From positions 18,016-82,015 of the forward strand of contig CAMKEG010000009.1 of assembly GCA_946411505.1 (NCBI GenBank): a DNA stretch of 64,000 bases, written 5' to 3'. Within the stretch, counting starts at the first letter, position 1. The number at the start of each line of letters is the position of its first letter. The position numbers and the translations under genes were made by a program. Of the stretch, positions 1,121 to 52,407 are shown piece after piece. This DNA comes from an uncultured Treponema sp. Lineage in GTDB: Bacteria > Spirochaetota > Spirochaetia > Treponematales > Treponemataceae. The notes under the pieces were generated by a model that ran no database searches, was not told the origin of the DNA, and saw nothing but the letters and a program-made list of their open reading frames with translations.

Positions 1121-2461
1121 TCATTCAATTCCAAACAAAAGCGCGAGCGTCTTTGCGTCGCGCGTCATGTTGCTGATGACGCAGTATTCGTTGGGCATGT
1201 GCGCGGTCTCGTCAAGGCTGCTCCACACAACGCAATCGTAGCCAAGGTTGCGGAGTTCGGCGGCGACAGTTCCGCCTCCAATTCCGATTGTCTTTGCTTC
1301 TATTCCATGCGCCTCTTTTATGGCGGAAGCTAGCGCCTTGACGACCGGAGCGTTTTTGTCGGTGGCCTTGGACTGCGCGTTTTGCAAAAGCTGGAACGAA
1401 ACCTTGGCGCCCGAAACTTCTTCCTCTTTCGCGACAATCTTTTTTATCTCTTCCAAAATTTCTTCATTTTTATAGCGCGGAAGAACGCGGCAATCAAAGC
1501 AAAAAACGTCGCTTCCCGGAATTATGTTCACGCCCGCAACGTTCGCGTCGCGCTTAGTCGGCTCAAAGGTGCAAGTGGCAGGCTCAAACAAATCGTCCCT
1601 TGCGTCAAACCTTTTATGCAGGCCCTCGTAAAGCGCGACGCTCAAACGGTTGGCGGCAAGGCAAGCGTTGAGTCCTTCGTCTGGCCTGGAGCCGTGGCAC
1701 TGCTTTCCGCGGACGGTGAACTCAAGCCACAAGACGTTTTTTTCGGCGACTTCGATTGTTTGGCCAAGAGGATCGCCGCCGTCGGGGATTACAAAAAAGT
1801 CGTTTTTGCTAAAAAGGTCCGGGTGGTTTTTTAAGAGCCAAATCATTCCGTACTTGCTTCCGACTTCCTCGTCGGCCGCGAACAAAAGTTTTATCGTCCG
1901 CTCCGGCTGAACCTTGTTGGCCACAAAGGCCCAGGCGGCGGCGAAGGCCGAGCACAAGCCCTGCTGGTTGTCTTCTACGCCGCGGCCAAAAAGCTTTCCG
2001 TCCTTTTCCACTACTGTCCACGGATCGGTCTTCCAGTCGGCCAAGTTTCCGACCGGAACCACGTCCATGTGCGCGATGACCCAAATCGCGCCGGAACTTT
2101 GATTGTTCGCAAGACTAGAACTGGCGGCGCCGGAAGCCCCAGAACTGTCGCAAGCCAAAGAAGCGCCGGAATCGTTCGCAAGCCCAAGACTGCCGGCGGC
2201 GACGGACTGCTTCTTTCCCGGAATTGTCGCGATTAAGTTGGGTCGCCTTCCGTGCAAGGCGCGGCTGTCCGGCGCGTCAAAGCGCTCCAAGTTTGTTATT
2301 CCGTGGGCGCGCAAAAATTCTTCCAATGCCGCGCACTTTTCCCATTCGCCGTCGCCGCCGTTTTCCGGGGCCAGCGCTTTATGCGATGTCAAAAGTTTTT
2401 GCAGCGCGACGCATTCGTCCGCGCTGTTTTCTATGAATTTAAGAAGGTCTGATTTGTTCAT
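1121..2461 (-). CDS. M20 family metallohydrolase (DapE/ArgE-like) with a low-complexity in-frame insertion
   Basis: AHMDVVP, GRGVEDNQQG, DEEVGS and ETAH motifs, with a Ser/Ala/Gly-rich insert after 'TIPGKK'. Confidence 0.88.
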   Translation of the reverse strand: MNKSDLLKFIENSADECVALQKLLTSHKALAPENGGDGEWEKCAALEEFLRAHGITNLERFDAPDSRALHGRRPNLIATIPGKKQSVAAGSLGLANDSGASLACDSSGASGAASSSLANNQSSGAIWVIAHMDVVPVGNLADWKTDPWTVVEKDGKLFGRGVEDNQQGLCSAFAAAWAFVANKVQPERTIKLLFAADEEVGSKYGMIWLLKNHPDLFSKNDFFVIPDGGDPLGQTIEVAEKNVLWLEFTVRGKQCHGSRPDEGLNACLAANRLSVALYEGLHKRFDARDDLFEPATCTFEPTKRDANVAGVNIIPGSDVFCFDCRVLPRYKNEEILEEIKKIVAKEEEVSGAKVSFQLLQNAQSKATDKNAPVVKALASAIKEAHGIEAKTIGIGGGTVAAELRNLGYDCVVWSSLDETAHMPNEYCVISNMTRDAKTLALLFGIE

Positions 2462-3619: not shown

Positions 3620-4044
3620 GATGCAGTTCCATCCACTTTGTACATTATTCTTAGGCGCTGCGCCTCGTTTGCTTCAAAGCCGAATTTTTGGTAAAAGGGA
3701 ATCTTGTCCGGCATCGCGCAAAGTTCCACAAAGATTTGCGTGCCCGGCGTTCCGTTTGCGTCGATGTATTTTAGAATCTCTTGAATCAAAATTTTTCCCA
3801 AGCCTTTCTTTTGCCAGTCGGGGTGAACGACGACGTCCTTTATGTAATAGCACAAGCCCTTGTCGCCAATCGCCCGCGCCATCGCCACGATTTTCTCTCC
3901 GTCAAAAACCGAAACGCGGAATAGCGTGTTCTTCATCGCAAGCGCCGTTTGCTCCAGCGTCGGCGGCTCTCCCCAAACCGATTCCCAAAGATAGCGGAAC
4001 TGCTCCGCGGTAAGTTCGTTGTGTTTTATCGTAAAGGTGGACAT
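3613..4044 (-). CDS. GNAT family N-acetyltransferase
   Basis: YIKDVVVHPDWQKKGLGK acetyl-CoA motif and PFYQKFGF. Confidence 0.9.
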   Translation of the reverse strand: MSTFTIKHNELTAEQFRYLWESVWGEPPTLEQTALAMKNTLFRVSVFDGEKIVAMARAIGDKGLCYYIKDVVVHPDWQKKGLGKILIQEILKYIDANGTPGTQIFVELCAMPDKIPFYQKFGFEANEAQRLRIMYKVDGTASC

Positions 4045-4089
4045 GAGGGAAGTATAGCGGATTTTTTTGGTTTTGGAAAGCCAAGTTTT

Positions 4090-5412
4090 TTACAAAAACA
4101 TTGCCATGTAAAATGGAATGAATGTTATGCCGCTTTCTGTCTTTAAGTCTTTGCCGCAAATGACATATTGTTTTGAAACTTGCTTTGAATATTTATTGCA
4201 GAATAAGTCAAGCGAACGGTGGCTCTTATATACAGAGGATTTTACTTCTAGAGGGATGATTTTCTTTCCGTCAGGAATCATAAAGTCTATCTCGTGATGG
4301 TCAAAGTTATGGAAAAATAATTCGTATCCTTTTGAGCGAAGAATTTGCGCAATCGCATTTTCAAAAATCATGCCTAGATTTATATTTATTTTGTCTACAA
4401 TAAGTTGTTTGTAAATTGATTCTTGTATCGGCTGATTTGAATTCATGAAAATTTGCGTTGTCAACAAGCCGGTGTCTCCCATAAAAATTTTTTGGCAAGA
4501 AATATCTTTGTTGAGCGCAAAGGCAAAATTTGGATCGGAGCAATTGTTCGCAATGTTTACTATCATTGAATCTTTTATCGCTTCAAATGAATTATAGTTT
4601 CTGGAAACTCTTGCGTTTTTTCCTAGCGCTGTCGCTTTAAATAGCCTTGAGTGAGATGACAGTTCGGACGGAACCGCGTCAAAAATCAATGAAGTGGAAA
4701 GATTGTATGTTGTGTCCAGTTTTTTCAAATCGTTATGGTAAAGTTGAATGATGTCGCGCTTAATTTCATCCACTCTAGAATAATCGTTTGTGTCTAGAAG
4801 TTCCGCAACCGCCTGCGGCATTCCGCCCACCGCCATATATAGGCGAAATTTTTTTATTATGGTTCTATGAACGGCATCGCCCAACGGCTTTTTGCGCAAA
4901 AAATTTTCGCGGATTAGTTCTATTGTAATGTCATCGCCTTTTGCCCATAGAAATTCCTCAAAATCCATTGGGTACATGTTTATGGTTTTTTCTTCGCTGG
5001 GGATGAGGATTTTTTCCACATTTTGCCTAAGCGTTATCAGGGAGCCTGTTTCCATATAATGAAAGCGGCCGTCCGCCACAAGCTGCTTTATTGACTGGCG
5101 GGCAAGCGGAAAAAGTTGAACTTCATCAAAAACTATTAGGCTTTTATGCGGAACAAGTTTTTTTCCGTAAATGAGCGAAAGGCTTCTGGAAAAATTGTCT
5201 AAATCGGACAAGTCTTCAAACAAGCCTTTGACTTTTGCCAAGTCGGTTTGAAAATTTATTAAAACATACGTTTCGTATTCGTTTTTTGCAAATTCTTCGA
5301 CAATGGTGGACTTGCCTATGCGCCGCGCGCCTTGCACAAGAAGAGCCCTTTTGTCCGCCCAGTTTTCTTTCCAGTTTTTGAACTGCTCGTATATTTTGCG
5401 TTTAAAAGCCAT
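4090..5412 (-). CDS. COG1373-type AAA+ ATPase with C-terminal DUF4143 (PD-(D/E)XK-like) domain, paralog 1
   Basis: Walker A GARRIGKS, Walker B IVFDEVQ, GGMPQAV, and C-terminal EIDFMI..IPLEVKS. AT-rich. Confidence 0.88.
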   Translation of the reverse strand: MAFKRKIYEQFKNWKENWADKRALLVQGARRIGKSTIVEEFAKNEYETYVLINFQTDLAKVKGLFEDLSDLDNFSRSLSLIYGKKLVPHKSLIVFDEVQLFPLARQSIKQLVADGRFHYMETGSLITLRQNVEKILIPSEEKTINMYPMDFEEFLWAKGDDITIELIRENFLRKKPLGDAVHRTIIKKFRLYMAVGGMPQAVAELLDTNDYSRVDEIKRDIIQLYHNDLKKLDTTYNLSTSLIFDAVPSELSSHSRLFKATALGKNARVSRNYNSFEAIKDSMIVNIANNCSDPNFAFALNKDISCQKIFMGDTGLLTTQIFMNSNQPIQESIYKQLIVDKININLGMIFENAIAQILRSKGYELFFHNFDHHEIDFMIPDGKKIIPLEVKSSVYKSHRSLDLFCNKYSKQVSKQYVICGKDLKTESGITFIPFYMAMFL

Positions 5413-5417
5413 AAGTT

Positions 5418-5447
5418 ATTATATGCACAAATATTAAGGTTTGTAAA
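5418..5447 (-). promoter_or_regulatory. Sigma70-like promoter of AAA paralog 1 (near-leaderless)
   Basis: TTTACA (5447-5442), 18 nt, then TATAAT (5423-5418), 5 nt before the ATG. The -35 lies inside the gene-proximal repeat. Confidence 0.55.
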
Positions 5448-5513
5448 GTGGAATTTTGCACAAATATTGAGATTTTTAAATGCGAAAGTTGCACAAATAT
5501 TGAGGTTTTTAAA
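5424..5513. repeat. Three direct repeats of a 24-bp box with a 33-bp period upstream of AAA paralog 1
   Basis: TGCACAAATATT(A/G)AG(G/A)TTT(G/T)TAAA starts at 5424, 5457 and 5490, with 9-nt variable spacers. Confidence 0.95.
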
Positions 5514-5534
5514 TAATATTTCATGATTTCTATA

Positions 5535-5562
5535 AAAAAAGGCTTTCACGAAGAAAGCCTTT
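5535..5562 (-). terminator. Rho-independent terminator downstream of the XRE-HTH gene
   Basis: Stem AGGCTTTC-ACGAA-GAAAGCCT flanked by an A7 run (a U-tract on the minus strand). Confidence 0.65.
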
Positions 5563-5675
5563 GTAAGACTGTTTTCAGTCTTGTTTTGAATCGTCCACGA
5601 AGCAGGACCACTCTATAATTAGGTATAGCATAAAATTGAGTTTTGTCAAGAAAAAATGATGTGAAGCTTAAAAAA

Positions 5676-6005
5676 TTATTCCGCTTCAATTTCTTTAAGG
5701 CTGGTTTCAATAAATCGGCGAAGGTTTTCTACAATGTTGGCTTTAATTTGTTTTTTATCGTCGGAAAGTTTTTTGTCAAAGGTTGAAGAAACGGGAAGAA
5801 ATAGAGTGTGAATGTCAATTTTCAGTGCTTCAGTCAATTGAGCGAGTGTTTTTTCGCTTGTCCAGGTTTTGCAAAGCTCAATGTTTTTGATTGTTTCATC
5901 TGATATGCTAGCCTTTTCCGCAAGTTCAAATTGAGTGAGTTTTTGAGCTTTTCTTACACGTTTTAAGTTTTCTGCCAATCGTTTTTGAATTTCCGAGTCT
6001 TTCAT
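5676..6005 (-). CDS. XRE-family helix-turn-helix transcriptional regulator
   Basis: LKRVRKAQKLTQFELAEKASIS..IKNIE HTH_3 pattern. Start set at MKDSEIQ (ATG 6005). Confidence 0.85.
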   Translation of the reverse strand: MKDSEIQKRLAENLKRVRKAQKLTQFELAEKASISDETIKNIELCKTWTSEKTLAQLTEALKIDIHTLFLPVSSTFDKKLSDDKKQIKANIVENLRRFIETSLKEIEAE

Positions 6006-6137
6006 ATCTAAAATGAATTTTAAAGGCAATTTGGAATAATAAAAATATCTTGTTAAACCATATTTATGTAAAAATGGGTTGTAAATTTGGATTTTATGTG
6101 TTATAATAAGCCATATTTTTATAAAAGGGGGTATGAG

Positions 6138-6593
6138 GTGAAAGTTTTTTTAATAAAATATGTTTGTTGCGTGGCTCTTCTTTTTAGCGGCTTGGCTTCG
6201 ATATGGGCGTCTCCTTGGGGGGATGAGGTAATGGTCGATGAGCGAATAAACGGAGTTCGCTTTTACTGTGCTTATAGCGATGCCTCAAACAAGACTTTGG
6301 TTGTGGGTGATGCAGCAGCGATTGTGAGTATGTATCTTCCAACAAGAGGAATTATGGGCATTATCCCGTTCAAGAAAGTTTCTGATGCAACTACCTTTGT
6401 GTCATGTTATAAAATGCTTGCAGATAGTGCTGGGAAACTTTCATTCGAAAGAGTTGGGCATATGGAGGAAGTTCTCTTGAAAGCTTTAGGAGATGTCAAA
6501 TATACAGAACCGAAGCCTATGCAAGGGGAGGTTGTGTTTGCTACGACTATGTGCGAGCATTTGGATTTTTCAAGGGCGGGAAATCCGAAATGA
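6138..6593 (+). CDS. Hypothetical exported protein
   Basis: Open frame with a probable GTG start after a purine-rich SD-like sequence and a signal-peptide-like N-terminus (FLIKYVCCVALLFSGLASIWA). The start is uncertain. Confidence 0.55.
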   Translation: MKVFLIKYVCCVALLFSGLASIWASPWGDEVMVDERINGVRFYCAYSDASNKTLVVGDAAAIVSMYLPTRGIMGIIPFKKVSDATTFVSCYKMLADSAGKLSFERVGHMEEVLLKALGDVKYTEPKPMQGEVVFATTMCEHLDFSRAGNPK

Positions 6594-6617
6594 CGAGTAA
6601 TCTGTCAAAAGGAAAAA

Positions 6618-7544
6618 ATGAGAATAGAATTGCCTGAAATTGGCGTGTCAAATATCCTGGACGGCTTTAATAATGTTTACGGACTCAATGGTTTTGCTTC
6701 AAAATTGTCAAAGGTTGAATTAGATAAAACGCGTTTGTATAGGTATGTCAAGCTTGAACAATTCAAAGAAAATGTAAAATCTAATGAACTTGTTTTTGTT
6801 TCTCCTGTTTTATGGGAAGATAAGTATGAGAGGCGTTTTTTGTTCACAGATTATTCTTCCCTAAACTTTCAACAGGGAAAAATACGTTGCATGTGCATAA
6901 CGAATGAACCGTATTATGGCGAGGAAGCGTGTTGGAAGAGTTATAGTTGGAAGGAAGTGGAATTTGAGTGTAAAGATGGTAAAAAAGAGTGTAAAATTAT
7001 GCGAAATAAAGAAATGGTTCGTTTAACTTTTAATCTTGGAGAGTTATTATCGACTTTAGATGATTTTTTTAAGGACTCGCGCGCAAAAATATATATAGGC
7101 GAAACAATATATGGGCTTGAAGTAATTGAAATAAATAACCTTCATCGTGAAGGGAAGGAATTCCATGATGTTTTCTTTCCCAAAAAATTTGATGTTGAAA
7201 ATTATCTTTCACTTATGCTTATAAAGCGAAAAGCCTTTTCTTATGAAAATGAGATACGAATCTTTATTTATTATGGCGAAGAAGCCGGAAAAATTGAAAA
7301 AAGTAGAAATAAAAAATATAATGAAGAAGAAAAAGAAAAATTGCTTGAGAGAATTCCAGTGACTTATAAAAACATTGTTTCTGAAGTTCGAACTTCGCCT
7401 TTTTTAACTGATGTTGAGCATGAAAATCAGAAAAATGAACTTTCAAAATATTTTTCAGAAAATAGCATTGTTAGATCAAAATTATATTCAAGCGGCTGGG
7501 AATTAAAATCTGTTTCTTGCGATGAAACCAAGAAAAAACTTTAG
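6618..7544 (+). CDS. DUF2971-like domain protein
   Basis: LYRYV..F, SPVLWEDKYE, CWKSY and KRKAFSYENEIRI resemble DUF2971 motifs. AT-rich. Confidence 0.6.
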   Translation: MRIELPEIGVSNILDGFNNVYGLNGFASKLSKVELDKTRLYRYVKLEQFKENVKSNELVFVSPVLWEDKYERRFLFTDYSSLNFQQGKIRCMCITNEPYYGEEACWKSYSWKEVEFECKDGKKECKIMRNKEMVRLTFNLGELLSTLDDFFKDSRAKIYIGETIYGLEVIEINNLHREGKEFHDVFFPKKFDVENYLSLMLIKRKAFSYENEIRIFIYYGEEAGKIEKSRNKKYNEEEKEKLLERIPVTYKNIVSEVRTSPFLTDVEHENQKNELSKYFSENSIVRSKLYSSGWELKSVSCDETKKKL

Positions 7545-7577
7545 GAACACTCTCTCGTTTTCAGCCGTTTTGCGCCC

Positions 7578-8900
7578 TTACAAAAACATCGCCATAAAAT
7601 GCGGAAGGGAGATTTTCTTTTCGTTGGCTCCGATGTTTCCGTCGATAAGTTTTATGGCGTATTTGGATTCAAAACGTTCCATAAAATTATTGAGGGATGG
7701 CGTTGACGTGTTTCCGGACTTCACTTCCACTGGAATCACGCCGCCGTCTTTTTCTATTATGAATTCAATTTCCATTTGGGAATTTTCGGTTTTATAATAG
7801 TGAAGGGAATGTCCGTTCTTTATTAGAATTTCGGAGACCAGGTTTTCGTAAATTCCGCCTTTGGCGTTGCCCAAAATTTTGTTTGTCATTACCGCAAGCT
7901 TTGTTTCCGCGCCGTATCTTGCCATCAAAAGCCCGGTGTCGTTGTAGTAAATTTTAAACTCGTTTTCTTTTTCGTTGGCTTTTAAGGGCAGCCGCGGCTC
8001 GTAAACGTTTCGGCAAACATTCACCATGTTTGAATCTTCAAGCCACATTACGCTGTCGGAATATTTGCGGGCGGTTGATTTTTTTTCCACTTCGGAATAT
8101 TTGAATTTTTTGTTTTCTTTTGCAAGCTGTCGCGGAACGCTGTCGTAGCACTTGCGGACTTTTACTTTTTCCACGCCTGTCGCATGGTTCGCGATGTCGT
8201 CGTCATAAGACGAAAGTATTTTTTCCTGAATCTGCTGGACTCGTCCAAAATCTTTTCGCGCCGCAAAGTCCGCGACAACTTCCGGCATTCCGCCCACTAT
8301 GATATATTCCTTTAAAATGTTCCTAAACTTTTCATTTATGTCGTCGGGAATTTTTTCTTGCTTGTCGTAAAAGGATTTTAAATATTCAATGTCGCTGTCT
8401 TTGTATCCGTAAGCCCAAAGAAATTCTTTAAAGTCAAGAGAATGCATGACAAGCTGCCGCTCATATCCAACAGGAATTGACTCAACTTCCTCAACTTCGG
8501 TGTCCGCGTCCTGCCCGTAATGAAGACCCAAAAGCGAGCCGGAAGCGATTACGTCATAGCGGTTGTCTTCCGCCAAAAATTTTAGCGAGGTTCGGGCTTT
8601 TGCGCATTTTTGTATTTCGTCAAGAAAAATGAGCGAGTTTCCTTTTAATAAGTTTTCTTTTGGAAAATGAATGGAAATTCGTTTGTAGATTTCTTCCGCG
8701 GAAAGTTCGCCTTCAAAAATCGATTTGAGGCTTGGTTTTTGCATGAAATTTATTTCAATAAATGTTTTATACTCTTTTTTGCCGAATTCGCGAACGATAT
8801 AAGTTTTTCCAATCTGGCGCGCGCCTTTAATTAAGAGACACTCTTTGCTTTTTGTCCGCTTCCACTTTAGAAGGTCGTCATAAGCTTTTCTTCGCAACAT
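7578..8900 (-). CDS. COG1373-type AAA+ ATPase with C-terminal DUF4143 domain, paralog 2
   Basis: Walker A GARQIGKT, Walker B IFLDEIQ, GGMPEVV, and C-terminal EIEFII..IPVEVKSG. It is 440 aa like paralog 1 and ends in the same (F)..FMAMFL-type motif. Confidence 0.88.
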   Translation of the reverse strand: MLRRKAYDDLLKWKRTKSKECLLIKGARQIGKTYIVREFGKKEYKTFIEINFMQKPSLKSIFEGELSAEEIYKRISIHFPKENLLKGNSLIFLDEIQKCAKARTSLKFLAEDNRYDVIASGSLLGLHYGQDADTEVEEVESIPVGYERQLVMHSLDFKEFLWAYGYKDSDIEYLKSFYDKQEKIPDDINEKFRNILKEYIIVGGMPEVVADFAARKDFGRVQQIQEKILSSYDDDIANHATGVEKVKVRKCYDSVPRQLAKENKKFKYSEVEKKSTARKYSDSVMWLEDSNMVNVCRNVYEPRLPLKANEKENEFKIYYNDTGLLMARYGAETKLAVMTNKILGNAKGGIYENLVSEILIKNGHSLHYYKTENSQMEIEFIIEKDGGVIPVEVKSGNTSTPSLNNFMERFESKYAIKLIDGNIGANEKKISLPHFMAMFL

Positions 8901-8906
8901 GTATAT

Positions 8907-8935
8907 ATATTACAAGGAATTGCGGTTTTTTTCAA
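8907..8935 (-). promoter_or_regulatory. Sigma70-like promoter of AAA paralog 2 (near-leaderless)
   Basis: TTGAAA (8935-8930), 17 nt, then TAATAT (8912-8907), 6 nt before the ATG. Confidence 0.55.
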
Positions 8936-8938
8936 GCA

Positions 8939-9024
8939 AAAAATGCATATTTTTGGACTATTAAATGCGTTAAAAATGCATATTTTTGGACCAATAAATG
9001 CATTAAAAATGCATATTTTTGGAC
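8939..9024. repeat. Three direct repeats of a 20-bp box with a 33-bp period upstream of AAA paralog 2
   Basis: AAAAATGCATATTTTTGGAC is identical at 8939, 8972 and 9005. The spacers TATTAAATGCGTT and CAATAAATGCATT are also similar. Confidence 0.95.
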
Positions 9025-9065
9025 AGTGTAGCGGCTCTTTTTGTACCAGTCAATAACTTCCTCTT

Positions 9066-9114
9066 AAAAATGACAAAAATGCCCCTGAAAATCCTTTGAA
9101 AAATGACAAAAATG
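9066..9114. repeat. Two direct repeats of a 16-bp box with a 33-bp period at the start of the AAA remnant
   Basis: AAAAATGACAAAAATG occurs at 9066 and 9099. Confidence 0.85.
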
Positions 9115-9402: not shown

Positions 9403-11622
9403 ATGCCCAAAAGCAAAACTGACCACGACATTTTCGCCCGCCTCAACTCGGAACAGTTGGACGCGGTCCAAAGCACGGAAGGCCACATTCGCGTTTTGGC
9501 CGGAGCGGGGAGCGGAAAGACGCGCGCTTTGGTAAGCCGTTACGTTTACCTTGTCCGCGACTTGGGAATATCGCCCAAAAACATTTTGTGCGTAACGTTC
9601 ACCAACCGCGCGGCAGAAGAAATGAAGGCCCGCGTCCGTTCAGAATTGGGCGACATGGACTTGGGCTACATTTGCACTTTCCACGCATTCTGCACTCTGC
9701 TTCTTCACGAAGACATAAACAAAATTAATTTTCCCAAAGACTTTGTGATTTTGGACAAGGAAGACTGGCGCTCGATTCTGCTGCGCGTTTTTGCCGACAT
9801 GGGCTTGACCTTAAAGGAAGCGACAATCCAGCAGAAAATCGACGAGGTGTTGGAAGCAAAGAAAACGCAGGCCGACAGTTACATCGACTATTTTTACAAG
9901 CTGAACAACGAGGAGCTTAAAGAAAAATTTTTGGCCAAGGGAATCGAGCGAAACCAAGAAATCTTTTTGCGTTTTTTGTATGAGCAAAAAAAATGCTTTG
10001 GCGTTGACTTTAACGACTTGATAAATTTCGCCGTTTACATTTTGGAAAAATTCCCGGACGTCGCGCAAAAATGGCAGGACAGAATTCAATACATAATGGT
10101 TGACGAGTTCCAGGACGTGAGCGCAAAGCAATATTCCATAGCGCAAATCTTAAGCCGAAAGCACAAGAATCTTTTTATCGTCGGAGACTCAGACCAAACG
10201 ATTTACTCTTGGCGGGGAAGCCACGTCAAGTTGATTTTGGACTTTGAAAAAGTTTACAAGGACGCGCGGACGATTTTGCTTTTAAAGAACTACCGTTCAA
10301 CTCCGCAAATACTCGCGGCGGCCAATTCGTTGATTGCCCATAACACTGTCCGCTATCCCAAGGAGCTTTCGCCCACAAAAAAGGCTGGCCCCAAGCCCCT
10401 CTACTATCACGCTCCCAGCGAGGAGGACGAGGCCAAGTGGATTTGCAAAAAGGTTAAGGAATTATGCAAGTCTGGAAATCTGCGCGACATCGCGATCCTT
10501 TACCGCGCCCACTACCTTTCGCGCTCGCTTGAAGAAGCCTTCATCAAAAACGACATTCCTTACCGCATCCTTGCCGGAACGGAATTTTACGGCCGGCGCG
10601 AAATCAAGGACATGATAAGCTACCTGCGAATGTTGACCGTCGCCGACGACGTTTCATTTTACCGCACGGTAAACCTTCCCAGCCGCAAAATCGGAAAGAA
10701 CAAAATCGCCGCCATAAAAGAGCGCGCCGACAAATTCGACTGTTCCGCCTACACCGCGCTAAAGGGCCTCTTGGCGCAAGACGACCCAATCTTAAAAGGA
10801 ACAAAGGCGCAGGCCTACGTTGACGCGATAGAAGAAAGCCGCGCGCTTTTAAACGACAAAAACTCTTTTGTCTACACGGTCGGATCGGGCACAAGCAAGC
10901 TGGGGAGCGTCTTGCAGTCGATTTTGGACAAGAGCGGCTATGAAGCCTTTTTGCGCCTGGAGGCCGACCAAGACCGCTTGGACAACGCCGCCGAATTCAA
11001 GCGCGCGGTGAACCAGGCCGGCTTTGACGACGACGCGACCTTGGAAGACTTTTTGCAGCGCGCGGCGCTATTCACCGACCTTGACCGCGAGGACAAGCGC
11101 GACGCCGTCAAAATGCTCACGATTCACGCGGCAAAGGGAATGGAGTTTAAAAACGTTTTCCTGTGCGGCATGAACGAGGGAATCTTCCCCAGCCGCAAGG
11201 TTCAAACGCCCGAGGACATGGAGGAGGAGCGACGGATTGCCTACGTCGCCATGACGCGCGCCAAGGACAGGCTCTTTATTACGGACGCGGGAGGAAAAGC
11301 CAACGACGGAATCTTTAAATACCCCAGCCGCTTTGTCTTTGAGGCCGCGGGCGAGGGCATGAAAAATTTTGACATTGAAAAGCCGCTTGACAAGGGCCTT
11401 GTGGAACAGTCGCAAAAAATAATCAAGTATGACGAAAGCCGCCTAAAGGCCGCGGCCACGCAATTAAAAAAAGGAGACCGAGTCCGCCACAAAGTTTTTG
11501 GCGCGGGAACAATCGTTCTTGTAAACGACAAGGCTTTTTGCTACACGATAAAGTTTGACGATTTGGCCACCGAGCGAAGCGTTCAGTTTTCGGCGCCGCT
11601 GGAATTGATTGCAGCCCAGTAG
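9403..11622 (+). CDS. uvrD: ATP-dependent DNA helicase UvrD/PcrA
   Basis: LAGAGSGKT, VDEFQD, VGDSDQTIYSWRG, NYRST, TIHAAKGMEF and EEERRIAYVAMTRA motifs, plus a C-terminal Tudor-like RVRHKVFGAG. Confidence 0.93.
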   Translation: MPKSKTDHDIFARLNSEQLDAVQSTEGHIRVLAGAGSGKTRALVSRYVYLVRDLGISPKNILCVTFTNRAAEEMKARVRSELGDMDLGYICTFHAFCTLLLHEDINKINFPKDFVILDKEDWRSILLRVFADMGLTLKEATIQQKIDEVLEAKKTQADSYIDYFYKLNNEELKEKFLAKGIERNQEIFLRFLYEQKKCFGVDFNDLINFAVYILEKFPDVAQKWQDRIQYIMVDEFQDVSAKQYSIAQILSRKHKNLFIVGDSDQTIYSWRGSHVKLILDFEKVYKDARTILLLKNYRSTPQILAAANSLIAHNTVRYPKELSPTKKAGPKPLYYHAPSEEDEAKWICKKVKELCKSGNLRDIAILYRAHYLSRSLEEAFIKNDIPYRILAGTEFYGRREIKDMISYLRMLTVADDVSFYRTVNLPSRKIGKNKIAAIKERADKFDCSAYTALKGLLAQDDPILKGTKAQAYVDAIEESRALLNDKNSFVYTVGSGTSKLGSVLQSILDKSGYEAFLRLEADQDRLDNAAEFKRAVNQAGFDDDATLEDFLQRAALFTDLDREDKRDAVKMLTIHAAKGMEFKNVFLCGMNEGIFPSRKVQTPEDMEEERRIAYVAMTRAKDRLFITDAGGKANDGIFKYPSRFVFEAAGEGMKNFDIEKPLDKGLVEQSQKIIKYDESRLKAAATQLKKGDRVRHKVFGAGTIVLVNDKAFCYTIKFDDLATERSVQFSAPLELIAAQ

Positions 11623-11689: not shown

Positions 11690-12424
11690 CTACCACACTT
11701 CCACCGCGCAAGCCAGCGCGCCGGCCTCTCCGTCCGTTCCCGCCGCGTAAATGGCAACGACGCTTTTTCCGTCAACGGCGGCGTATTTTGCAACCGCATT
11801 GTCGCCTTCCTTTAGCGCGGTCTTGTAGCTTATGCGCGCGTTCTTAAAGGCGGCCGCCGCTTTTGCAGGAAGCGCCTCAAGCGCGAAGTCGTAGTAGTTA
11901 AGGTTATGGACGTGGTTGTTAAAGTCAAAGTCGGAGCGGCGGAGCTGGATTTTTGTTTCGGCCTCAAAGGCTTCCGGCAATGAAATCTTGGCAAGTTTTT
12001 CTCCGCCAAAAACTTTTTTTCCTGGCTCCGGGCCGTAGCGGTCAAGCAAGTCCGCCTCCACCTTTATCGGCCGGCCAGCCCTTATGTCAAAGCGAACCCA
12101 CTTGCTTGTTCCCTCCACGGCGGGGTTTCCGTCGGCGTACAAGTAGTAGTTGCGCGAGGTTCCAAACGGCGAGACCAAGCCTTCGCTCCAAGTCTCAACC
12201 TTGATTTTTTGTCCGTAGCGGGGGAATTCTTTTACGCAAACTTTCCAATCGGTCAAAACCCAGGCCACGCCAAGGGTCTCGCTCACCTTTATGGCCGAGT
12301 CTCCGGCCGCGTCCGAGTGGCGGCTTCCGGCGTTTTCAAAATACTTTAAAATCGCGGCCATCGTAAGGCGCTCGCTTTTGTCAAAGTCTTCAAGCAGGGG
12401 AGAGAAGTTCGTTGAAAAAATCAT
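11690..12424 (-). CDS. Acyl-ACP thioesterase (FatA/B-like)
   Basis: Double hotdog pattern with DFDFNNHVHNLNY catalytic motif. Confidence 0.88.
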   Translation of the reverse strand: MIFSTNFSPLLEDFDKSERLTMAAILKYFENAGSRHSDAAGDSAIKVSETLGVAWVLTDWKVCVKEFPRYGQKIKVETWSEGLVSPFGTSRNYYLYADGNPAVEGTSKWVRFDIRAGRPIKVEADLLDRYGPEPGKKVFGGEKLAKISLPEAFEAETKIQLRRSDFDFNNHVHNLNYYDFALEALPAKAAAAFKNARISYKTALKEGDNAVAKYAAVDGKSVVAIYAAGTDGEAGALACAVEVW

Positions 12425-12445: not shown

Positions 12446-13420
12446 TTATTCTTTTATGATCGTTTGGTAAAGCCTGTCCAAGTCGGCGCGGCTAAAGTAG
12501 TCGATTACAAGCTGGCCCTTTTCCAAGCCGCCGTTAAGCGAAACTTTTGTTCCAAGCGTTTCCATAAATTTTTGCTCGATGCTGATTATGTCTGGGTCTC
12601 GGACGCGCGCTCCGTCTTTTTTGGCGGAACTTTTTGACGCGCGGCCTCCGTCGTTAAGGGTTGCGGCTTGGGCTTCCGCCTGGCGGACCGACAAGTTGCT
12701 TGCGATTATCTTTCCGAACAATACGCGCTGGTCGGCGGGGTTTTCCACGCTAAGAAGCGCTCGCGCGTGGCCGCTTGTGATTTGTCCGACAATCAAGGAG
12801 TTTTGCATGTCTTCGGGCAACTTTAAAAGGCGCAGGGCGTTGGCCACGGTCGGGCGGCCTTTTCCTACTTTTTGGGCAACCTCGTCTTGGTTAAGTCCGC
12901 CCACTTTCATAAGCTCGTAGTAGGCCTGCGCCTCTTCTATCGGGTTTAGGTTTGAGCGCTGAACGTTTTCAATCAGCGCCACTTCCAGTTTTTTTTCGTC
13001 GCTGAATTTTCGCAGCTGCACCGGAACTTTTTTTAAGCCTACGATTTTTGCGGCGCGCGTTCTTCGTTCGCCCGCGATGATGTAAAAAGTTCCGTCGCCC
13101 GCGTCTTCGATTATGATGGGCTGAACGATTCCGTGCTCAACAATGGAGTCCGAAAGCTCCTTAAGTTCCGCCTCGTCAAAAACCTGTCGGGGCTGGTGGG
13201 GGTTGGGCTTTAGCAAGTTGGGGTCAACCCACAAGGTTCCGTTTTCGTCGGTTTCTATCGCGTCTGGAATGTTGGCGCTCTTCGCGCTTTTTTTGAAGGA
13301 GGCTTTTGGCGCGCTTTGGATTTTGTCAACTGAAGGCTCGCTGTCGTTTTGCGCTTGGTGTTCGGCCTCGCCCAGAAGGACGTCCAATCCGTGTCCAAGG
13401 CCTGGTTTTCTTTTAGCCAC
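12446..13420 (-). CDS. parB: Chromosome partitioning protein ParB/Spo0J
   Basis: GLGHGLDVLL N-terminus, NPHQPR, IIAGERR and ALIENVQRSNLNPIEEA. GTG start. Confidence 0.95.
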   Translation of the reverse strand: MAKRKPGLGHGLDVLLGEAEHQAQNDSEPSVDKIQSAPKASFKKSAKSANIPDAIETDENGTLWVDPNLLKPNPHQPRQVFDEAELKELSDSIVEHGIVQPIIIEDAGDGTFYIIAGERRTRAAKIVGLKKVPVQLRKFSDEKKLEVALIENVQRSNLNPIEEAQAYYELMKVGGLNQDEVAQKVGKGRPTVANALRLLKLPEDMQNSLIVGQITSGHARALLSVENPADQRVLFGKIIASNLSVRQAEAQAATLNDGGRASKSSAKKDGARVRDPDIISIEQKFMETLGTKVSLNGGLEKGQLVIDYFSRADLDRLYQTIIKE

Positions 13421-14168
13421 GGTGAATCACCTCCTCCGCCAACTTCTGGTAGCTTTTGGCTCCAACGCAGTCGGGGTCGTACTTGCAAATCGGAAGTCCG
13501 TGCGAAGGCGCTTCGCTAAGGCGCACGTTGCGGGGGATGATTGTGTTGAAGACCACGTCCTTAAAGTATGACTTCACTTGAACGACAACGTCCTGCGCCA
13601 ATCTTGTGCGCGAGTCGTACATCGTGAAAAATATTCCGCCGATTGTCAAATTGGGATTGATAGACTTTTGGACTTTTTTTACGGTTTGAAGCAAAAGCGT
13701 GATTCCTTCCAAGGCAAAGTATTCGCATTGCATCGGAACAAGCACGGCGTCCGCCGCCGCAAGGCCGTTAAGCGTAAGGATGCCGAGCGAGGGCGGGCAG
13801 TCGATAAGAATGTAGTCGTATTTTTCCTGCAGCGGCTCAAGCGCGTCCTTTAAAAAGTATTCGCGGCGCTCTTGGTCAACCAATTCGATGGCCGCTCCCG
13901 AAAGGTCAAGGCTGGCGCTGATAGCGTCCAATGTGGGTATGGAAGTTTTTTTAACCGCTTCGGCGGCCTCGCATTCGCCGCTCAAAAGTTCGTAAATTGT
14001 AGGCTTGTCTTTTGAAACGCCCACGCCGCTGGACATGTTTCCCTGCGAGTCAAAGTCAACAAGAAGGACGCGCTTTTTTGCCAACGCGATGTAGGCGCCG
14101 ATATTGATTGCGGAAGTCGTCTTTCCGACTCCGCCTTTTTGATTTACAAAAACAAAAGTTTTAGCCAT
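13413..14168 (-). CDS. parA: Chromosome partitioning ATPase ParA/Soj
   Basis: NQKGGVGKTT, DFDSQGN, IDCPPSLG and PRNVRLSEAPSHG. Start set at MAKTF (ATG 14168). Confidence 0.95.
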   Translation of the reverse strand: MAKTFVFVNQKGGVGKTTSAINIGAYIALAKKRVLLVDFDSQGNMSSGVGVSKDKPTIYELLSGECEAAEAVKKTSIPTLDAISASLDLSGAAIELVDQERREYFLKDALEPLQEKYDYILIDCPPSLGILTLNGLAAADAVLVPMQCEYFALEGITLLLQTVKKVQKSINPNLTIGGIFFTMYDSRTRLAQDVVVQVKSYFKDVVFNTIIPRNVRLSEAPSHGLPICKYDPDCVGAKSYQKLAEEVIHRG

Positions 14169-14277
14169 AAGGTTTATTATAGCATTTTTGGCCTTTGTTG
14201 ACAATATGTTTGTTCTGGGCCGAGACACTAGCAAAAGCGGGCGAAGCGTGGTATAATGGAACTATGGAGGAATACAG

Positions 14278-14795: not shown

Positions 14796-16217
14796 ATGAT
14801 TCTTTCGGCCACCCTTTCAAAGCCCACGTCTCAGGTGGAAGCCATTCTCGGAAAAAAATACGAGCGCGTCAAAATTCGCTTTAAGGGCGGGCCTGTTTCG
14901 CCGTATTTCGCCGAATTCTTCACCCAAACGCAAAGCTTCCATAAAAATTTTTCGCAGGCGGAATTGGAGGAATTTTTACAAAAGAACATCGGCCGCTCAT
15001 TTAAAAACTGCGTTGAACGGACAGAAGACAAGGAAATCACTTTTTTAGCCAACAAGCGCGGCGAAGTAAAACGGCTTGAAAAAGCGCTCGCAAAAACTGG
15101 CGGCAAGCCCAAAAACGCCGCCGCGCAAACTGATTTCAAGCCTAAAAACGGCGCCGCGCAAACAGGCGGAAAAACCAAAGCTGCCGCCGCCTTTGGCGAA
15201 AAAGCCGCGCTTTTCGGCGCCGCCGCAAGCGCCTTTAACGCCCACAAGGTCGCCTTAAACCGTTCCAAAAACTACATCATACAAGAAGGAACGCAAGTTC
15301 CATTTTTGCAGGCGCTGGGCGTTATGACCGACGCTGGAAAAGTCGTCGCCGCAAAGTACGACAAGTTCCGGCAAGTCAACCGCTTTTTGGAGCTTTTGGA
15401 CGACGTTTTGCCCGCCGTCCTCAATGCGCGCTCGCAAGTCCAAGACTGCGCCGCTTTTGGCGCTGACAACAACTTGTCGCAAGCCCAAGAAGGCGGGCGG
15501 CCAATAGAGCCGCTTCAAATCCTTGACTTTGGCTCCGGCAAGTCTTACTTGACCTTTGCCGTACAGTACTTTTTGGAAAGCGTAAAAAAGATTCCCTGCC
15601 AAATAACCGGCGTCGACTTGAAGGAAGACGTCATCAAATCCTGCTCCGACTTGGCCGCCCGCCTTGGCGTCAAAAACATGAATTTTGTTTGCGGCGACAT
15701 CGCCAAATACAGCGGAAAAAATCCCGACATAGTGATAACGCTTCACGCCTGCGACATTGCCACCGACTACGCGCTTGCCTTTGCGGTGGAACGCGGCGCC
15801 AAGGCTATTTTGTCGGTTCCCTGCTGCCAAAAGGAAGTCAACGCGCAGCTTGGTAAGTCGTCCAACGCGCTTTTCGCGCCGCTTTTAAAGCATGGAATTT
15901 TCCGCGAGCGATTTTCCGCGCTGATGACTGACGCGGTCCGCGCCCAGCTTTTGGAAGCGCGCGGCTACAAGGTTCAAGTTTTGGAATTCATCGACATGGA
16001 AGGGACGCCAAAGAATCTTATGATTAGGGCGCTGTTGAAGGGCGGCGCGCGTCTTGGTCAGGAAGCGATTTCTGGCGCCGCGCCTTCCGGTAAAGAATCC
16101 GCGCTGGGTGGCGGCGCCGCAGCACAGTCTAGGGCTTTTGAACAATCCGCGCGCGATTTGCTTACCGCATTTGGCGCAAGGCAAAAGCTCGCGGATTTGT
16201 TGGGCGGCGGCCTTTAA
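14796..16217 (+). CDS. Class I SAM-dependent methyltransferase with several low-complexity insertions
   Basis: ILDFGSGKSYLTF, LHACDIATD, VPCCQ and TPKNLMIRA. Confidence 0.85.
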   Translation: MILSATLSKPTSQVEAILGKKYERVKIRFKGGPVSPYFAEFFTQTQSFHKNFSQAELEEFLQKNIGRSFKNCVERTEDKEITFLANKRGEVKRLEKALAKTGGKPKNAAAQTDFKPKNGAAQTGGKTKAAAAFGEKAALFGAAASAFNAHKVALNRSKNYIIQEGTQVPFLQALGVMTDAGKVVAAKYDKFRQVNRFLELLDDVLPAVLNARSQVQDCAAFGADNNLSQAQEGGRPIEPLQILDFGSGKSYLTFAVQYFLESVKKIPCQITGVDLKEDVIKSCSDLAARLGVKNMNFVCGDIAKYSGKNPDIVITLHACDIATDYALAFAVERGAKAILSVPCCQKEVNAQLGKSSNALFAPLLKHGIFRERFSALMTDAVRAQLLEARGYKVQVLEFIDMEGTPKNLMIRALLKGGARLGQEAISGAAPSGKESALGGGAAAQSRAFEQSARDLLTAFGARQKLADLLGGGL

Positions 16218-17374: not shown

Positions 17375-17405
17375 CGTCTACTCCTGAATAATTATTGTCT
17401 AATAA

Positions 17406-17500
17406 TACGGCTGTTTGCGCGAGTTTTGTTGCGAGCGCAAATGTTGCCGCTTATGCGGCGTCAAGCATTTGTGGGCTTGCAATCAATCTTCTCGCCGCTG
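17406..17500. repeat. REP-like palindromic intergenic repeat, copy A (nth-mscS)
   Basis: The 54-nt core 17406-17459 matches 37950-38003 at 49/54 nt. It contains two hairpins. Confidence 0.85.
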
Positions 17501-17508
17501 CTATTATA

Positions 17509-36647: not shown

Positions 36648-37376
36648 TTAGTCAAGAACCGCCAGCAAGTAGTCCGAATCTTCGTAGGACGAGAGGCCGT
36701 CGTAGCCGCTGAAAAATTGGGCGCTCTTGAAGCCCGCTTCTTTTGAAAATTCTTCAATTTCCGATTTTCTTAACGGATAGACTTTCGCCTGTTCGTATAC
36801 GGGCATGGACTTGTTGTTTTTTTCCAAAAAGCTGTCGATTAAAAAACTTCCGTCCTGGCATTTTGAAAGCACGCTTTTGTAGCGGACGCGGGCGCTGCTA
36901 AGTTCCGGCAGGCAGCACTTGGCGCTGTTTTTGTATTTTTCAAAGTTAAAGAGTTGCAGCACAACCTTTCCGCCGTCGGCCAAAAGTTCCTTGCAGTCAA
37001 AGAAGAATTTTCGCATCAAGGTTTTGTCGTGGATAAAAATGATGCGGCTGTTTAGGCATGAAATTATGTTGTAGAATTTTTTTCCTAAAAATCGGGTCAT
37101 TTCCAGCGTGGACATTTGAAAGTATCGCAGCGACATTAGCTGGTTTCTGTATTTTAGGCTTGCGGAATCAAGCAATTCCCGTTGTGTTTCCAAGCCGGTC
37201 ACGTCCACGTCGTCTTTTGCCAGCCTGTGGCAAAGAACGCCGGTTCCGCAGCCGATGCTTAAAACTTTTGCGGGATGCGGGTATTTTTGCGCCAATGTCT
37301 CATAAAATGTCTGTTGAGCCAATGACACAGGGTAGAGTTCATCGTAATATTCAACCAAATTTTTAATTGATTCCAT
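36648..37376 (-). CDS. Class I SAM-dependent methyltransferase
   Basis: VLSIGCGTG motif I. Start set at MESIKN. Confidence 0.85.
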   Translation of the reverse strand: MESIKNLVEYYDELYPVSLAQQTFYETLAQKYPHPAKVLSIGCGTGVLCHRLAKDDVDVTGLETQRELLDSASLKYRNQLMSLRYFQMSTLEMTRFLGKKFYNIISCLNSRIIFIHDKTLMRKFFFDCKELLADGGKVVLQLFNFEKYKNSAKCCLPELSSARVRYKSVLSKCQDGSFLIDSFLEKNNKSMPVYEQAKVYPLRKSEIEEFSKEAGFKSAQFFSGYDGLSSYEDSDYLLAVLD

Positions 37377-37417
37377 TTTGCATATAATTATAAACCCAAA
37401 ACGGAAATAACGCAAGG

Positions 37418-37601
37418 AAAAAAAACGGCTGAAAAGCGCGGCTCCCAGTCGCGGACGGCATTGCGAAACCGCTCGATATCGTCGCTACACGCTGTTTGCG
37501 CTTGAAACCATTAAACGCTGCCGCTTGCGCGGCAGGCGCAAACAGAGTGTTTTCGCAATGCCGTCCGCTCCTTCGCGCCGCGCTTTTCAGCCGTTTTTTT
37601 T
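37418..37601. repeat. 184-bp nested inverted-repeat element (MITE/REP-like)
   Basis: 25-bp perfect terminal inverted repeat AAAAAAAACGGCTGAAAAGCGCGGC. Inner arms GCGGACGGCATTGCGAAA/TTTCGCAATGCCGTCCGC and CTGTTTGCGC/GCGCAAACAG, plus an apical CTGCCGC/GCGGCAG hairpin. Confidence 0.9.
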
Positions 37602-37932: not shown

Positions 37933-37949
37933 TATGACCTCTCAAAAAT

Positions 37950-38048
37950 TACGGCTGTCCGCGCGAGTTTGGTTGCGAGCGCGGATGTTGCCGCTTATGC
38001 GGCTAACATAAGTTTTTTGGCTTGCCTCCGATTTCATTGCCGCTAGCC
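37950..38048. repeat. REP-like palindromic intergenic repeat, copy B (acrB to P-II-like gene)
   Basis: The core is 49/54 identical to 17406-17459, and the distal 30 nt match 1038-1067. Confidence 0.85.
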
Positions 38049-38049
38049 T

Positions 38050-43446: not shown

Positions 43447-43573
43447 CGTATTCTCCTGCGTAGAGCGACAATATCCTATCATATTTTCGCTTGGAATTCT
43501 ATAGTAGCGATGTGTCAAAGATGTGACAAAAAAGGGCGGAATTTTGAAAATTCCTGGGGAAATTTGGGCGAGC

Positions 43574-43669
43574 ATTTTCAAAAAATAGGGTGTTTTTGAA
43601 AATATTAAGGTAAAATTAGGGGAGAATTTTCAAAAAGTGTTGACTTTTTGAAAATAGTAGGGTAAAATT
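43574..43669 (+). promoter_or_regulatory. Fic promoter with duplicated palindromic operator
   Basis: ATTTTCAAAAA-N8-TTTTTGAAAAT occurs at 43574-43603 and 43626-43655 (52-bp period). TTGACT (43640)-N17-TAAAAT (43663) overlaps the second copy. Confidence 0.75.
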
Positions 43670-43700
43670 GGCATGGAATTTTCAGAAAAAGGAGGAAAAA

Positions 43701-44864: not shown

Positions 44865-44922
44865 GGTGGAAGTTTGTTTTTGGGTTGAGACTGTGGTAGA
44901 ATAGAGATGTGAAGGACGGTTT

Positions 44923-45453: not shown

Positions 45454-45688
45454 TTTAGGTTCATCTTGGTATTCAAACTCAGAGTCGTATGATGTAGAGG
45501 TTTATGAAATAACCTCTGATATGATTACTGATAAAATTTTGGAAAAATATGACCAGGATTTGTCTCTTTGCAATCTTGGAAGAGAAAATATGACGGAAAT
45601 GTTTTATGATAAAGACGGTTGGATTTATTTCAAGGTAGAAAAGTATTACAGATTCAATTTACGAATAAAGGAATTTGCGAGAAAATAA
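45446..45688 (+). CDS. Hypothetical acidic protein
   Basis: 80-aa ORF overlapping the upstream stop, preceded by SD AGGAG. Confidence 0.55.
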   Translation: MNDLGSSWYSNSESYDVEVYEITSDMITDKILEKYDQDLSLCNLGRENMTEMFYDKDGWIYFKVEKYYRFNLRIKEFARK

Positions 45689-51271: not shown

Positions 51272-51350
51272 ATGCTCAGTGTACACTGAGCATAGGAATT
51301 GACTAATTCCTATGCTGCGAAAACGTTGCTACGCTCGTTTTCGCAGCATA
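51272..51350. repeat. Chain of three overlapping perfect inverted repeats
   Basis: 22-bp palindrome at 51272-51293, 12-bp stem with 4-nt loop at 51289-51316, and 15-bp stem with 10-nt loop at 51311-51350. Confidence 0.92.
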
Positions 51351-52403: not shown

Positions 52404-52407
52404 TTAA

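Follow-up and report, generated by a model that had tools for sequence, protein, structure and literature searches.

We have analyzed a 64,000-nucleotide (nt) stretch of DNA from an uncultured Treponema sp. (positions 18,016 to 82,015 of contig CAMKEG010000009.1, GenBank assembly GCA_946411505.1; hereafter, the window), in which the genes for an M20 family metallo-hydrolase, an S-adenosylmethionine (SAM)-dependent methyltransferase and an HD-domain protein carry in-frame segments of low complexity. We observed that these segments contain copies of one DNA unit of about 33 nt, and that the family of such copies is real at the DNA level, restricted to a single clade of Treponema, present in many genes, located in loops of the encoded proteins, and subject to gain and loss of units. 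We consider it probable, if by no means certain, that the insertions are arrays of this one clade-specific unit, which spread as DNA and then expanded and contracted.

The 33-nt unit and its copies in the window

The unit spans 11 codons, is GC-rich and free of stop codons in all frames, and has the consensus c.aaAAt.GTTCGCAAGCCCAAGAaGcgGgcgcc on the strand that we designate F (the opposite reading being designated R); the window copies, aligned on the F strand, read AATCGYTYGCAAGCCCAAGAMKGC.. Translation of the F strand in frame 1 yields N-R-S/L-Q-A-Q-D/E, which is found twice in the methyltransferase and at the N-terminus and in the middle of the HD protein. The reverse reading yields S-L-G-L-A-N-D-S, as in three units of the M20 gene and at the HD C-terminus, and a shifted frame of the reverse reading yields QSRAFEQS, as in region 3 of the methyltransferase. 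Codon choice was conserved along with these peptides: all 9 [SL]QAQ[ED] peptides in unbiased clade sequence are encoded by CAA-GCC-CAA, and 6 of 7 LGLA[NS] peptides use GGG, which makes up 2.9% of Gly codons in the genes of the window. Because the same codons, rare ones included, recur across frames and orientations, the entity that is shared between loci is DNA and not peptide. An earlier reading of these letters, made from the sequence only, had claimed a shared nucleotide motif, and this claim is borne out, beyond mere similarity of composition, by a single unit that appears in different frames and orientations with the same codons, rare GGG and AGT among them. Information content drops to zero outside the block of about 33 nt, and the flanking sequences are unrelated to each other; within the unit, a 12-nt core is strongly conserved and its flanks are variable. 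The exact 12-mer core occurs twice in 64 kb, and recognizable units occur at roughly one per 6 kb of the window.

The strings on which the sequence-only reading was built were all located where it had placed them: TCGCAAGCCCAAGACTG at 2176-2192 in the M20 insertion, with degenerate copies at 2107 and 2148, and, in the methyltransferase gene, TCGCAAGTCCAAGACTG at 15432 (16/17 identical) and TCGCAAGCCCAAGA at 15477 (14/14 identical). The + strand carries all five copies; since the M20 gene runs on the - strand and the methyltransferase gene on the +, the motif has opposite orientations in the two genes, as had been claimed. Likewise, TTGCAAGCCCACAA at 58955 in the HD gene is the exact reverse complement of 17469-17482, within an intergenic repeat, and the match extends to 30/39. 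The similarities among the coding copies are far above chance. The 17-mer has 5 matches at ≤3 mismatches in the window against 0.19 expected, and none of 100 shuffles reached 5; only the 11-mer core, taken alone, was borderline (9 matches vs 3.5 expected, about 2.6-fold). We also used a weight matrix that was built from the three M20 units alone and was thus independent of the choice of strings. Of its 20 best matches elsewhere in the window, 8 (and 6 of the best 10) fell in the variable segments of the methyltransferase and HD genes, which total 669 nt or 1% of the window, whereas 500 column-shuffled matrices of identical composition gave a mean of 0.46 and a maximum of 3. Chance as the source of the coding copies is excluded.

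The M20 gene (1121-2461, -; Pfam Peptidase_M20 and M20_dimer) has orthologues named M20 family metallo-hydrolase [Treponema sp.]. Its in-frame array of three units (2093-2215, -), which is matched by nhmmer and is absent from outgroup orthologues, reads in the R orientation as ..AAGSLGLANDSGA / SLACDSSGA / SSSLANNQSSGA, with unit footprints at about 2165-2199, 2138-2168 and 2093-2131. Orthologues of at least 85% identity range from 409 to 456 residues, the whole difference falling at this one site, and the array itself ranges from 4 to 51 residues among clade members. Orthologues of 62% identity or less have 405-415 residues, with one exception of 438, and there the site reads G-ES-DDYS-IW. 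In contigs from gut runs of sheep and cattle, the M20 gene has either this three-unit array or an allele in which 69 nt are replaced by 33 others; the alternative allele was seen in a bovine gut metagenome. In one sheep-gut contig (run X4), two +1 insertions and two -1 deletions lie inside 22 nt of the third unit (2100-2122), and these compensated shifts indicate that part of the unit is there read in another frame. In the AlphaFold2 (AF2) model of the protein, residues 87-121 form a loop between two confident beta strands, with a predicted local distance difference test score (pLDDT) below 50.

The methyltransferase gene (Pfam Methyltransf_32; 14796-16217, +) has three variable regions in orthologue alignments, and these coincide with the low-confidence segments of its AF2 model (residues 99-157, 217-235 and 418-439). 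Region 1 (15081-15200, +) holds a 33-nt tandem repeat (GGCAAGCCCAAAAAC.., read as GKPKNAAAQTDF) for which Tandem repeat finder reported a period of 33 and 2.9 copies at 15094-15190, and which differs in copy number among relatives; it is probably the same core in another frame, its matches to the position weight matrix and to nhmmer being weak. Region 2 (15421-15506, +) consists of two F units, 15421-15454 (RSQVQDC) and 15462-15501 (LSQAQEGG), separated by a degenerate inverted unit (AAFGADNN), and relatives have from 0 to 3 or more units at this site. Region 3 (16040-16156, +), which also differs in length among relatives, holds an R-type variant at 16040-16081 (ARLGQE) and a shifted-frame R unit at 16116-16156 (AAQSRAFEQS).

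The HD gene (58058-59443, +), assigned by a weak Pfam HD match and by orthologue alignment, likewise has three variable regions. Near its N-terminus are tandem F units of period 33 (ERLQGQKARGGDC / LKDKKAAA; 58079-58149, +), which are matched by nhmmer and to which the relative L100 adds one further unit of 36 nt. The annotated start overlaps the 3' end of a phosphoribosyltransferase gene (57409-58083), and several relatives begin at MQDQKAA; possibly, the real start is a TTG near 58127, which would leave the first N-terminal unit outside the coding region. The middle region (58925-59107, +) opens with an F unit at 58939-58980 (ENRLQAHNSVAA), the one with the 30/39 match to the intergenic repeat. 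The C-terminal region lies at 59261-59314 (+), where an R unit (AAPLGIASDS, 59264-59293) is followed by the variant AAPFGQE. Exactly one 30-nt unit is present here in the window and absent in L099 and L100, flanked by a direct repeat of 12/14 matching positions, and relatives have a literal SLGLANDS at this site; HD relatives carry even the literal SLGLANDSGA of the M20 insertion. In the aggregate, orthologue alignments support the claim that the segments in all three genes are insertions, since outgroup orthologues do not have them, and they speak against the ancestral linkers that the sequence-only reading had named as a finding that would count against it. The low-confidence, disordered segments in the two modelled proteins (M20 and methyltransferase) agree with its view that the insertions create new peptide loops.

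Other genes of the window hold further sites. An empty site in the UvrD-like helicase gene (9403-11622) lies at 10438-10480 (+) and reads KELC-KSGN-LRD; in the relatives L001, L002, L097 and L098, 41-44 additional residues (..RRSQAQEAAAAAPLGLANDNGLKDQK..) are found here, including an inverted pair of units with about 22 bp of complementarity. The acyl-ACP thioesterase gene (11690-12424) has at 11846-11863 (-) a remnant, AAA GCG GCG GCC GCC, in which the unit's GC-rich tail alone is kept; in L098, L008 and L148 the gene reads ..VASPESAASENSSQAQEAAAAF.., where the spacing of the two cores is 35 nt, so that they are read in two different frames within one insertion. In the outer-membrane efflux protein (OEP) gene (42145-43581), a single F core, GCGCAAGCCCAAGACGC (AQAQDA; 43378-43395, -), occurs in low-complexity sequence that follows the signal peptide; this match is weak, and its membership in the family is uncertain. 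Further hosts in relatives, besides the helicase and the thioesterase, include a DUF1343 protein (..AAAGSLGLANDSS..) and the OppC-OppD linker, which has SLQAQD and, in another frame, ESFASPRS.

A module related to the unit also occurs between genes, as part of a structured repeat of about 105 nt. Copy A of this repeat is at 17402-17507 (+), with a 3' module at 17456-17496 that is an R-type unit; copy B is at 37945-38052 (+; profile match E=1.9e-29), and a partial copy with the 3' module only is at 1037-1117 (-; E=0.003), between a Glycos_transf_4 gene and the M20 gene. Relatives have copies at 10745-10847 in L008, 4662-4767 in L005 and 2658-2760 in L009. Seven sequences were aligned and ten more matches were found in 527 kb, the frequency being roughly one copy per 50-60 kb of clade sequence. 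In the alignment, six base pairs of a stem covary, and there is a GCCGC-TTAT-GCGGC hairpin; comparison with Rfam gave no family at E≤1. The element may represent a small RNA or a regulatory element, or else a repeat similar to those of the MITE type (miniature inverted-repeat transposable elements). The resemblance to the coding unit is limited to the element's 3' module (about 76% over 25 nt), and the element's profile matches the HD middle copy at E=0.018 (nhmmer) over a module of some 25-30 nt. Thus, the link to intergenic repeats drawn in the sequence-only reading holds for that module and does not extend to the rest of the element, and it is weaker than the similarity among the coding copies. 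We set aside the 105-nt element as a full-length parent of the coding insertions, to which it is nonetheless related, because its profile reaches coding copies through the module of about 30 nt only.

Distribution among genomes and turnover of units

The homologues of the window are metagenome-assembled genomes of Treponema sp. of ruminant origin, the nearest genome being Treponema sp. UBA4377. An nhmmer profile made from 10 window copies found 84 matches (best, 25.7 bits) in 248 kb of sequence from this clade; 1.12 Mb of loci from outgroup Treponema and spirochaetes yielded 4 (best, 10.3 bits). A profile made from exact-pattern matches was rejected as too narrow. We also searched 185,579 species genomes with the 21-nt pattern GYTYGCAAGCCCAAGAVKSSS; all counts from this search are lower bounds. 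At least 115 stretches matched, at least 56 of them in 10 genomes of this clade, and, among the matches listed, the other 59 were singletons in unrelated genomes, which is close to what chance would give (about 50, by our own estimate). Our literature search found no report of this repeat in Treponema.

The matches listed for the clade comprise 62 units at 56 loci, of which 61 units lie inside open frames, and it is to these that the following counts refer. The peptides are of the SQAQE type in 39 cases and the SLGLAN type in 12, with 2 each of CKPKT and FASPRS and 3 each of SWAC[EK] and VLGL[RQ]T, and orientation relative to the host gene is divided 43:18. Hosts belong to more than 25 unrelated housekeeping (Pfam) families, including FAD synthetase (RibF), Fmt, MurB, RibD, MnmA, TruB, RluA-type synthases, RsmE, Der and EarP, and also phosphoglucomutase, ABC-F, OppD, a Mur ligase, YjeF, GT4, GH3, biotin/lipoate ligase, a radical-SAM protein and DUF72. 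Units lie in linkers or at sites that split or extend Pfam domains. A second direct copy was found within 45 nt upstream of 21 of the 62 units and downstream of 15, compared with about 4% at control positions, and an inverted neighbor was found for 6-7. Tandem spacing had a mode of 33 nt and a range of 30-39 nt, which includes values that are not multiples of three.

The turnover of units was seen as well in an unbiased catalogue of in-frame indels of 3 or more residues between the window and its relatives, the 23 events of which are dominated by motif-bearing sites. Once start-codon artefacts, a 5-residue thioesterase site (11729-11743) and the repetitive tail of an HC2-like protein were left out, the indels of 5 or more residues in housekeeping genes carried the motif (M20, UvrD, thioesterase, methyltransferase and HD); separate exceptions were a Ser/Gly linker and, in a diverged GH5 cellulase, small indels. 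Units gained or lost in tandem, and arrays deleted in part, make up much of the variation in length, which looks like slippage. The MurB site is filled in 2 genomes and has no insertion in 4 other genomes of the clade or in any outgroup, which makes it a genuine gain at a formerly empty position. One MurB insertion (L215), of 63 nt, is bounded by AGCGCG..AGCGCG, and the empty allele has AACGCG once; other junctions are ambiguous.

Gene trees of the host loci disagree with each other. The UvrD-like helicase of the window is 98% identical to that of RUG14489 (L008) and 93% identical to that of UBA4377 (L001), and its M20 protein is 96% identical to that of UBA4377 and 85% identical to that of RUG14489. 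The disagreement implies homologous recombination among these rumen Treponema lineages, and indicates that such recombination also shuffles filled and empty alleles. The attempt to polarize presence and absence of the UvrD insertion by phylogeny failed because of the conflicting gene trees.

Origin of the insertions and comparison with known repeats

The first copy in a new gene would, on the account that we favor, arrive by non-autonomous copy-and-paste. Such seeding might take the form of a short templated insertion, of illegitimate recombination with a few bases of homology at the junction, or of mobilization in trans by an enzyme encoded elsewhere. Copies, in either orientation and several frames, would settle in permissive places of many unrelated housekeeping genes (disordered loops, linkers between domains, and termini), and one copy would have come to form the 3' module of the 105-nt intergenic repeat. 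Once seeded, units could be gained, lost, inverted and locally frame-shifted by replication slippage or by template switching between units, and these processes in arrays would produce the length differences between strains. Persistence would be limited to copies that are in frame, free of stops and structurally harmless. A bolder form of this account, which we put forward only tentatively, would have the unit as an ultra-short, non-palindromic mobile coding module that is actively copied between genes by a dedicated mechanism, is possibly tied to the 105-nt element, and continuously makes strain-specific disordered loops in core enzymes. Of the proposal in the sequence-only reading that a small selfish repeat is invading genes, the clade-specific dispersal in more than 25 families stands; movement, invasion and selfishness we can only infer.

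Several observations weigh against an account of spread as DNA. No movement was observed. Much of the clade has units at the M20 and methyltransferase sites, which are possibly old; several sites are shared within the clade, and recombination between lineages blocks the polarizing of gains and losses at most sites. The 6-bp repeat that flanks the MurB insertion is the only junction found that resembles a target-site duplication, and a slippage deletion explains it equally well. Neither a transposase, a reverse transcriptase nor a Y1 (HUH-type tyrosine) transposase was found by Pfam among 33 open reading frames (ORFs) scanned in the window, or in the annotated flanks, and the unit consensus has no terminal inverted repeats and no GTAG/CGTC tag. 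The exact 20-mer CTTGGGCTTGCRAAYGAYTC is rare, with 16 matches in 185,579 genomes, of which 5 are in the clade and 3 of these are M20 orthologues; it follows that the copies are diverged and give no sign of a recent burst, and a high-copy, near-identical element is thereby ruled out. The counts of the 21-nt search are lower bounds, and the chance expectation used for it is our own estimate. Finally, the strong bias of frame is unexplained: among the matches listed, F1 has 39 copies and F0 and F2 have 2 each, and R0 has 12 and R1 and R2 have 3 each. Microhomology between Ala codons was tried as the cause and rejected (GCSGCS hexamers in phases 0/1/2 numbered 102/77/8). Since it cannot yield the bias, selection at the level of the peptide probably also filters the copies.

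Other explanations appear to us to meet with greater difficulties. That the segments are low-complexity regions born independently in place by slippage, and alike through composition and codon usage, might be suggested by their richness in Ser, Gly, Ala and Gln, by their slippage-like variation in length, and by an 11-mer core that on its own is present in the window at only some 2.6 times expectation. We regard this as very improbable, however, given that column-shuffled matrices of identical composition miss the other insertions, that identical cores of 14-21 nt occur in unrelated genes and in opposite orientations with rare codons, and that 1.1 Mb of outgroup Treponema sequence is without the motif; an independent origin at each site is not credible. 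It is scarcely conceivable that orthologues share the segments as ancestral linkers, or that metagenome assembly produced them as artefacts. The data do consist of metagenome-assembled genomes, in which repeats can cause chimeric assemblies, and some sites are common to many clade members, but M20 orthologues at ≤62% identity and distant methyltransferase and HD orthologues lack the segments, and the same arrays are found with intact reading frames in many independent assemblies and runs. A motif kept by selection for a function, whether as a protein-binding or uptake site in DNA, as mRNA structure or as a flexible Gln/Ala-rich linker, would account for the conserved 12-nt core with its variable flanks, for the strong preference for two frames that give polar or Ala-rich peptides, and for the presence of the motif in a conserved, structured intergenic element with covarying stems. 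Yet the peptide cannot be the object of selection when both orientations, several frames and rare codons are retained; the density of about one unit per 6 kb is far below that of uptake sequences; and units are lost freely between close relatives (as in the UvrD and thioesterase genes of the window) and are unstructured when single. We therefore judge selection of this kind to be quite unlikely.

A miniature element mobilized by a transposase, of the repetitive extragenic palindromic (REP)/REPIN, MITE or Rickettsia palindromic element (RPE) type, with the enzyme (for example, of the REP-associated tyrosine transposase (RAYT)/IS200 type) encoded elsewhere in the genome, deserves more serious attention, even if we think it unlikely. 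The unit is discrete and sharply bounded, and is dispersed at dozens of loci in both orientations, with a 43:18 bias such as would be expected from a strand-specific mechanism. Inverted pairs show an enrichment of 2.5-3 times beside units and fold into a stem of about 22 bp (z=-5.6), one insertion is flanked by a 6-bp direct repeat, and a longer intergenic element carries the unit. Set against these properties, single units fold no better than shuffles, the consensus lacks both terminal inverted repeats and the GTAG/CGTC tag, and no transposase was found in 64 kb or in the inspected flanks; moreover, the copies are diverged, and the commonest arrangement is a tandem array of 33-nt period, which is atypical of REPs or MITEs. 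Spread of one clade-specific unit as DNA, followed by expansion and contraction, remains the account that we prefer.

The sequence-only reading had cited the palindromic elements of Rickettsia as established precedent. These RPEs (RPE-1 to RPE-10; Ogata et al. 2000, 2002, summarized in PMC10969869 and PMC3184786) are 105-146 bp in length and are inserted in frame in many unrelated genes. Both they and the Treponema unit are clade-restricted, occur between genes and in frame within housekeeping genes, keep the frame of the host, use mostly one frame of the element, and occupy positions tolerated by the fold; neither has a known transposase. Hence, with regard to in-frame occurrence in many unrelated genes and to loops compatible with the fold, the 2 systems agree. 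They differ in length and in symmetry, since the Treponema unit is about 33 nt and has no dyad symmetry when single, and in that Treponema units form strain-variable tandem arrays in both orientations and several frames. The hosts differ as well, one being a free-living gut spirochaete and the other an obligate intracellular alphaproteobacterium. A description of the unit as a palindromic element was rejected, as single units and the M20 array fold like shuffled sequence (z from -0.6 to +0.6). Only an occasional inverted pair, such as that in UvrD of UBA4377 with its stem of about 22 bp (z=-5.6), forms a strong hairpin. The likeness thus does not amount to identity, and the unit, whose host is a Treponema, is not classed as an RPE.

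Other known repeats resemble the unit in part. The mycobacterial interspersed repetitive units (MIRU) and related variable number tandem repeats (VNTR) are short, translatable units present at dozens of loci in tandem arrays that vary between strains, and their mode of dispersal is not known. The Treponema unit is also found at many loci in arrays of strain-variable copy number, but MIRUs are 46-101 bp and lie between the genes of operons, where ORFs of the unit overlap neighboring stop and start codons, whereas the Treponema unit, of 33 nt, is mostly intragenic and occurs in either orientation. Low-complexity or VNTR loci arising by slippage have in common with the Treponema loci the gain and loss of units between direct repeats, highly variable length and disorder; unlike the Treponema loci, they do not share a specific sequence of 14-33 nt in both orientations. 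PARCEL elements (Roeske et al. 2010) are reportedly units of 25 residues, amphipathic and with dyad symmetry, found in ORFs of surface proteins or proteins of unknown function and spread horizontally. Both they and the Treponema unit are coding repeats that are defined as DNA and have a patchy distribution and variable copy number, but the latter has 11 codons and occurs in cytosolic housekeeping enzymes of a single clade. REPs lie outside genes; each is a palindrome with a GTAG or CGTC tag, and a RAYT gene goes with them (PMC3733652). The Treponema unit is within the same size range of 20-40 nt, is GC-rich and dispersed, and forms inverted doublets capable of long hairpins, as do REPs and REPINs; it differs from these in having neither a hairpin nor a GTAG/CGTC tag, and in that 61 of the 62 units listed are in open frames. 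No RAYT-type gene was found among the scanned ORFs of the window or in the annotated flanks. With regard to MITEs, the consensus has no terminal inverted repeats, and a flanking direct repeat of 6 bp was seen once (MurB, L215), other junctions being ambiguous. Nor does the unit behave as a DNA uptake sequence or uptake signal sequence (DUS/USS), which are exact 9-12-mers at about one per kb; the 12-mer core of the unit occurs twice in 64 kb.

Genomic setting and significance

Several further features of the window were noted. Genes for ParB and ParA (12446-14234) adjoin the UvrD and methyltransferase genes, and cumulative GC skew climbs monotonically over the entire window; the region may lie near the replication origin on a single replichore. 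No Rfam family matched the window at gathering thresholds, and it contains no tRNAs. An island of low GC at 4000-9100 (36-37%, vs about 51% elsewhere) contains two paralogous AAA_14/DUF4143 ATPase genes (4090-5412 and 7578-8900, both -); ahead of each is a tandem repeat that is AT-rich and has a period of 33 nt (5424-5514 and 8939-9024), and two ORFs between the paralogues have no Pfam match. Of two further low-GC islands, that at 43560-45500 has a 52-nt tandem repeat (43560-43669) ahead of a Fic/DOC gene (43668-44864), and that at 51300-54300 has four ORFs with no Pfam match (51299-54291). The gene at 61214-61966 (-) encodes a Lys/Ala-rich histone-like protein, the orthologue of which matches DUF1508 and HC2; its DNA is highly repetitive with periods of 12-15 nt, and is distinct from the 33-nt unit. 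An inverted repeat of 57 nt (37418-37474 and 37545-37601; 88% complementary, 70-nt spacer) lies directly upstream of a methyltransferase gene (36648-37415, -), on its high-coordinate side; it is perhaps a large hairpin, or else a small inverted-repeat element.

In practical terms, the arrays are markers for strains and also a source of errors of assembly and annotation in rumen metagenome-assembled genomes. Hundreds of metagenome assemblies exist for this clade, and close relatives allow a comparison of filled with empty alleles, so that it becomes possible to ask by test how repeats reach new genes, why certain frames survive, and whether the new loops are neutral or are put to use. To our knowledge, there is essentially one textbook example of the in-frame spread of a repeat through housekeeping genes, that of the RPEs of Rickettsia, and its mechanism is not known. 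A 2024 review merely speculates that such spread occurs beyond Rickettsia (PMC10969869). The Treponema repeat would be a second, independent case, in abundant free-living spirochaetes of the rumen, with a much shorter unit and with behavior like that of a minisatellite.

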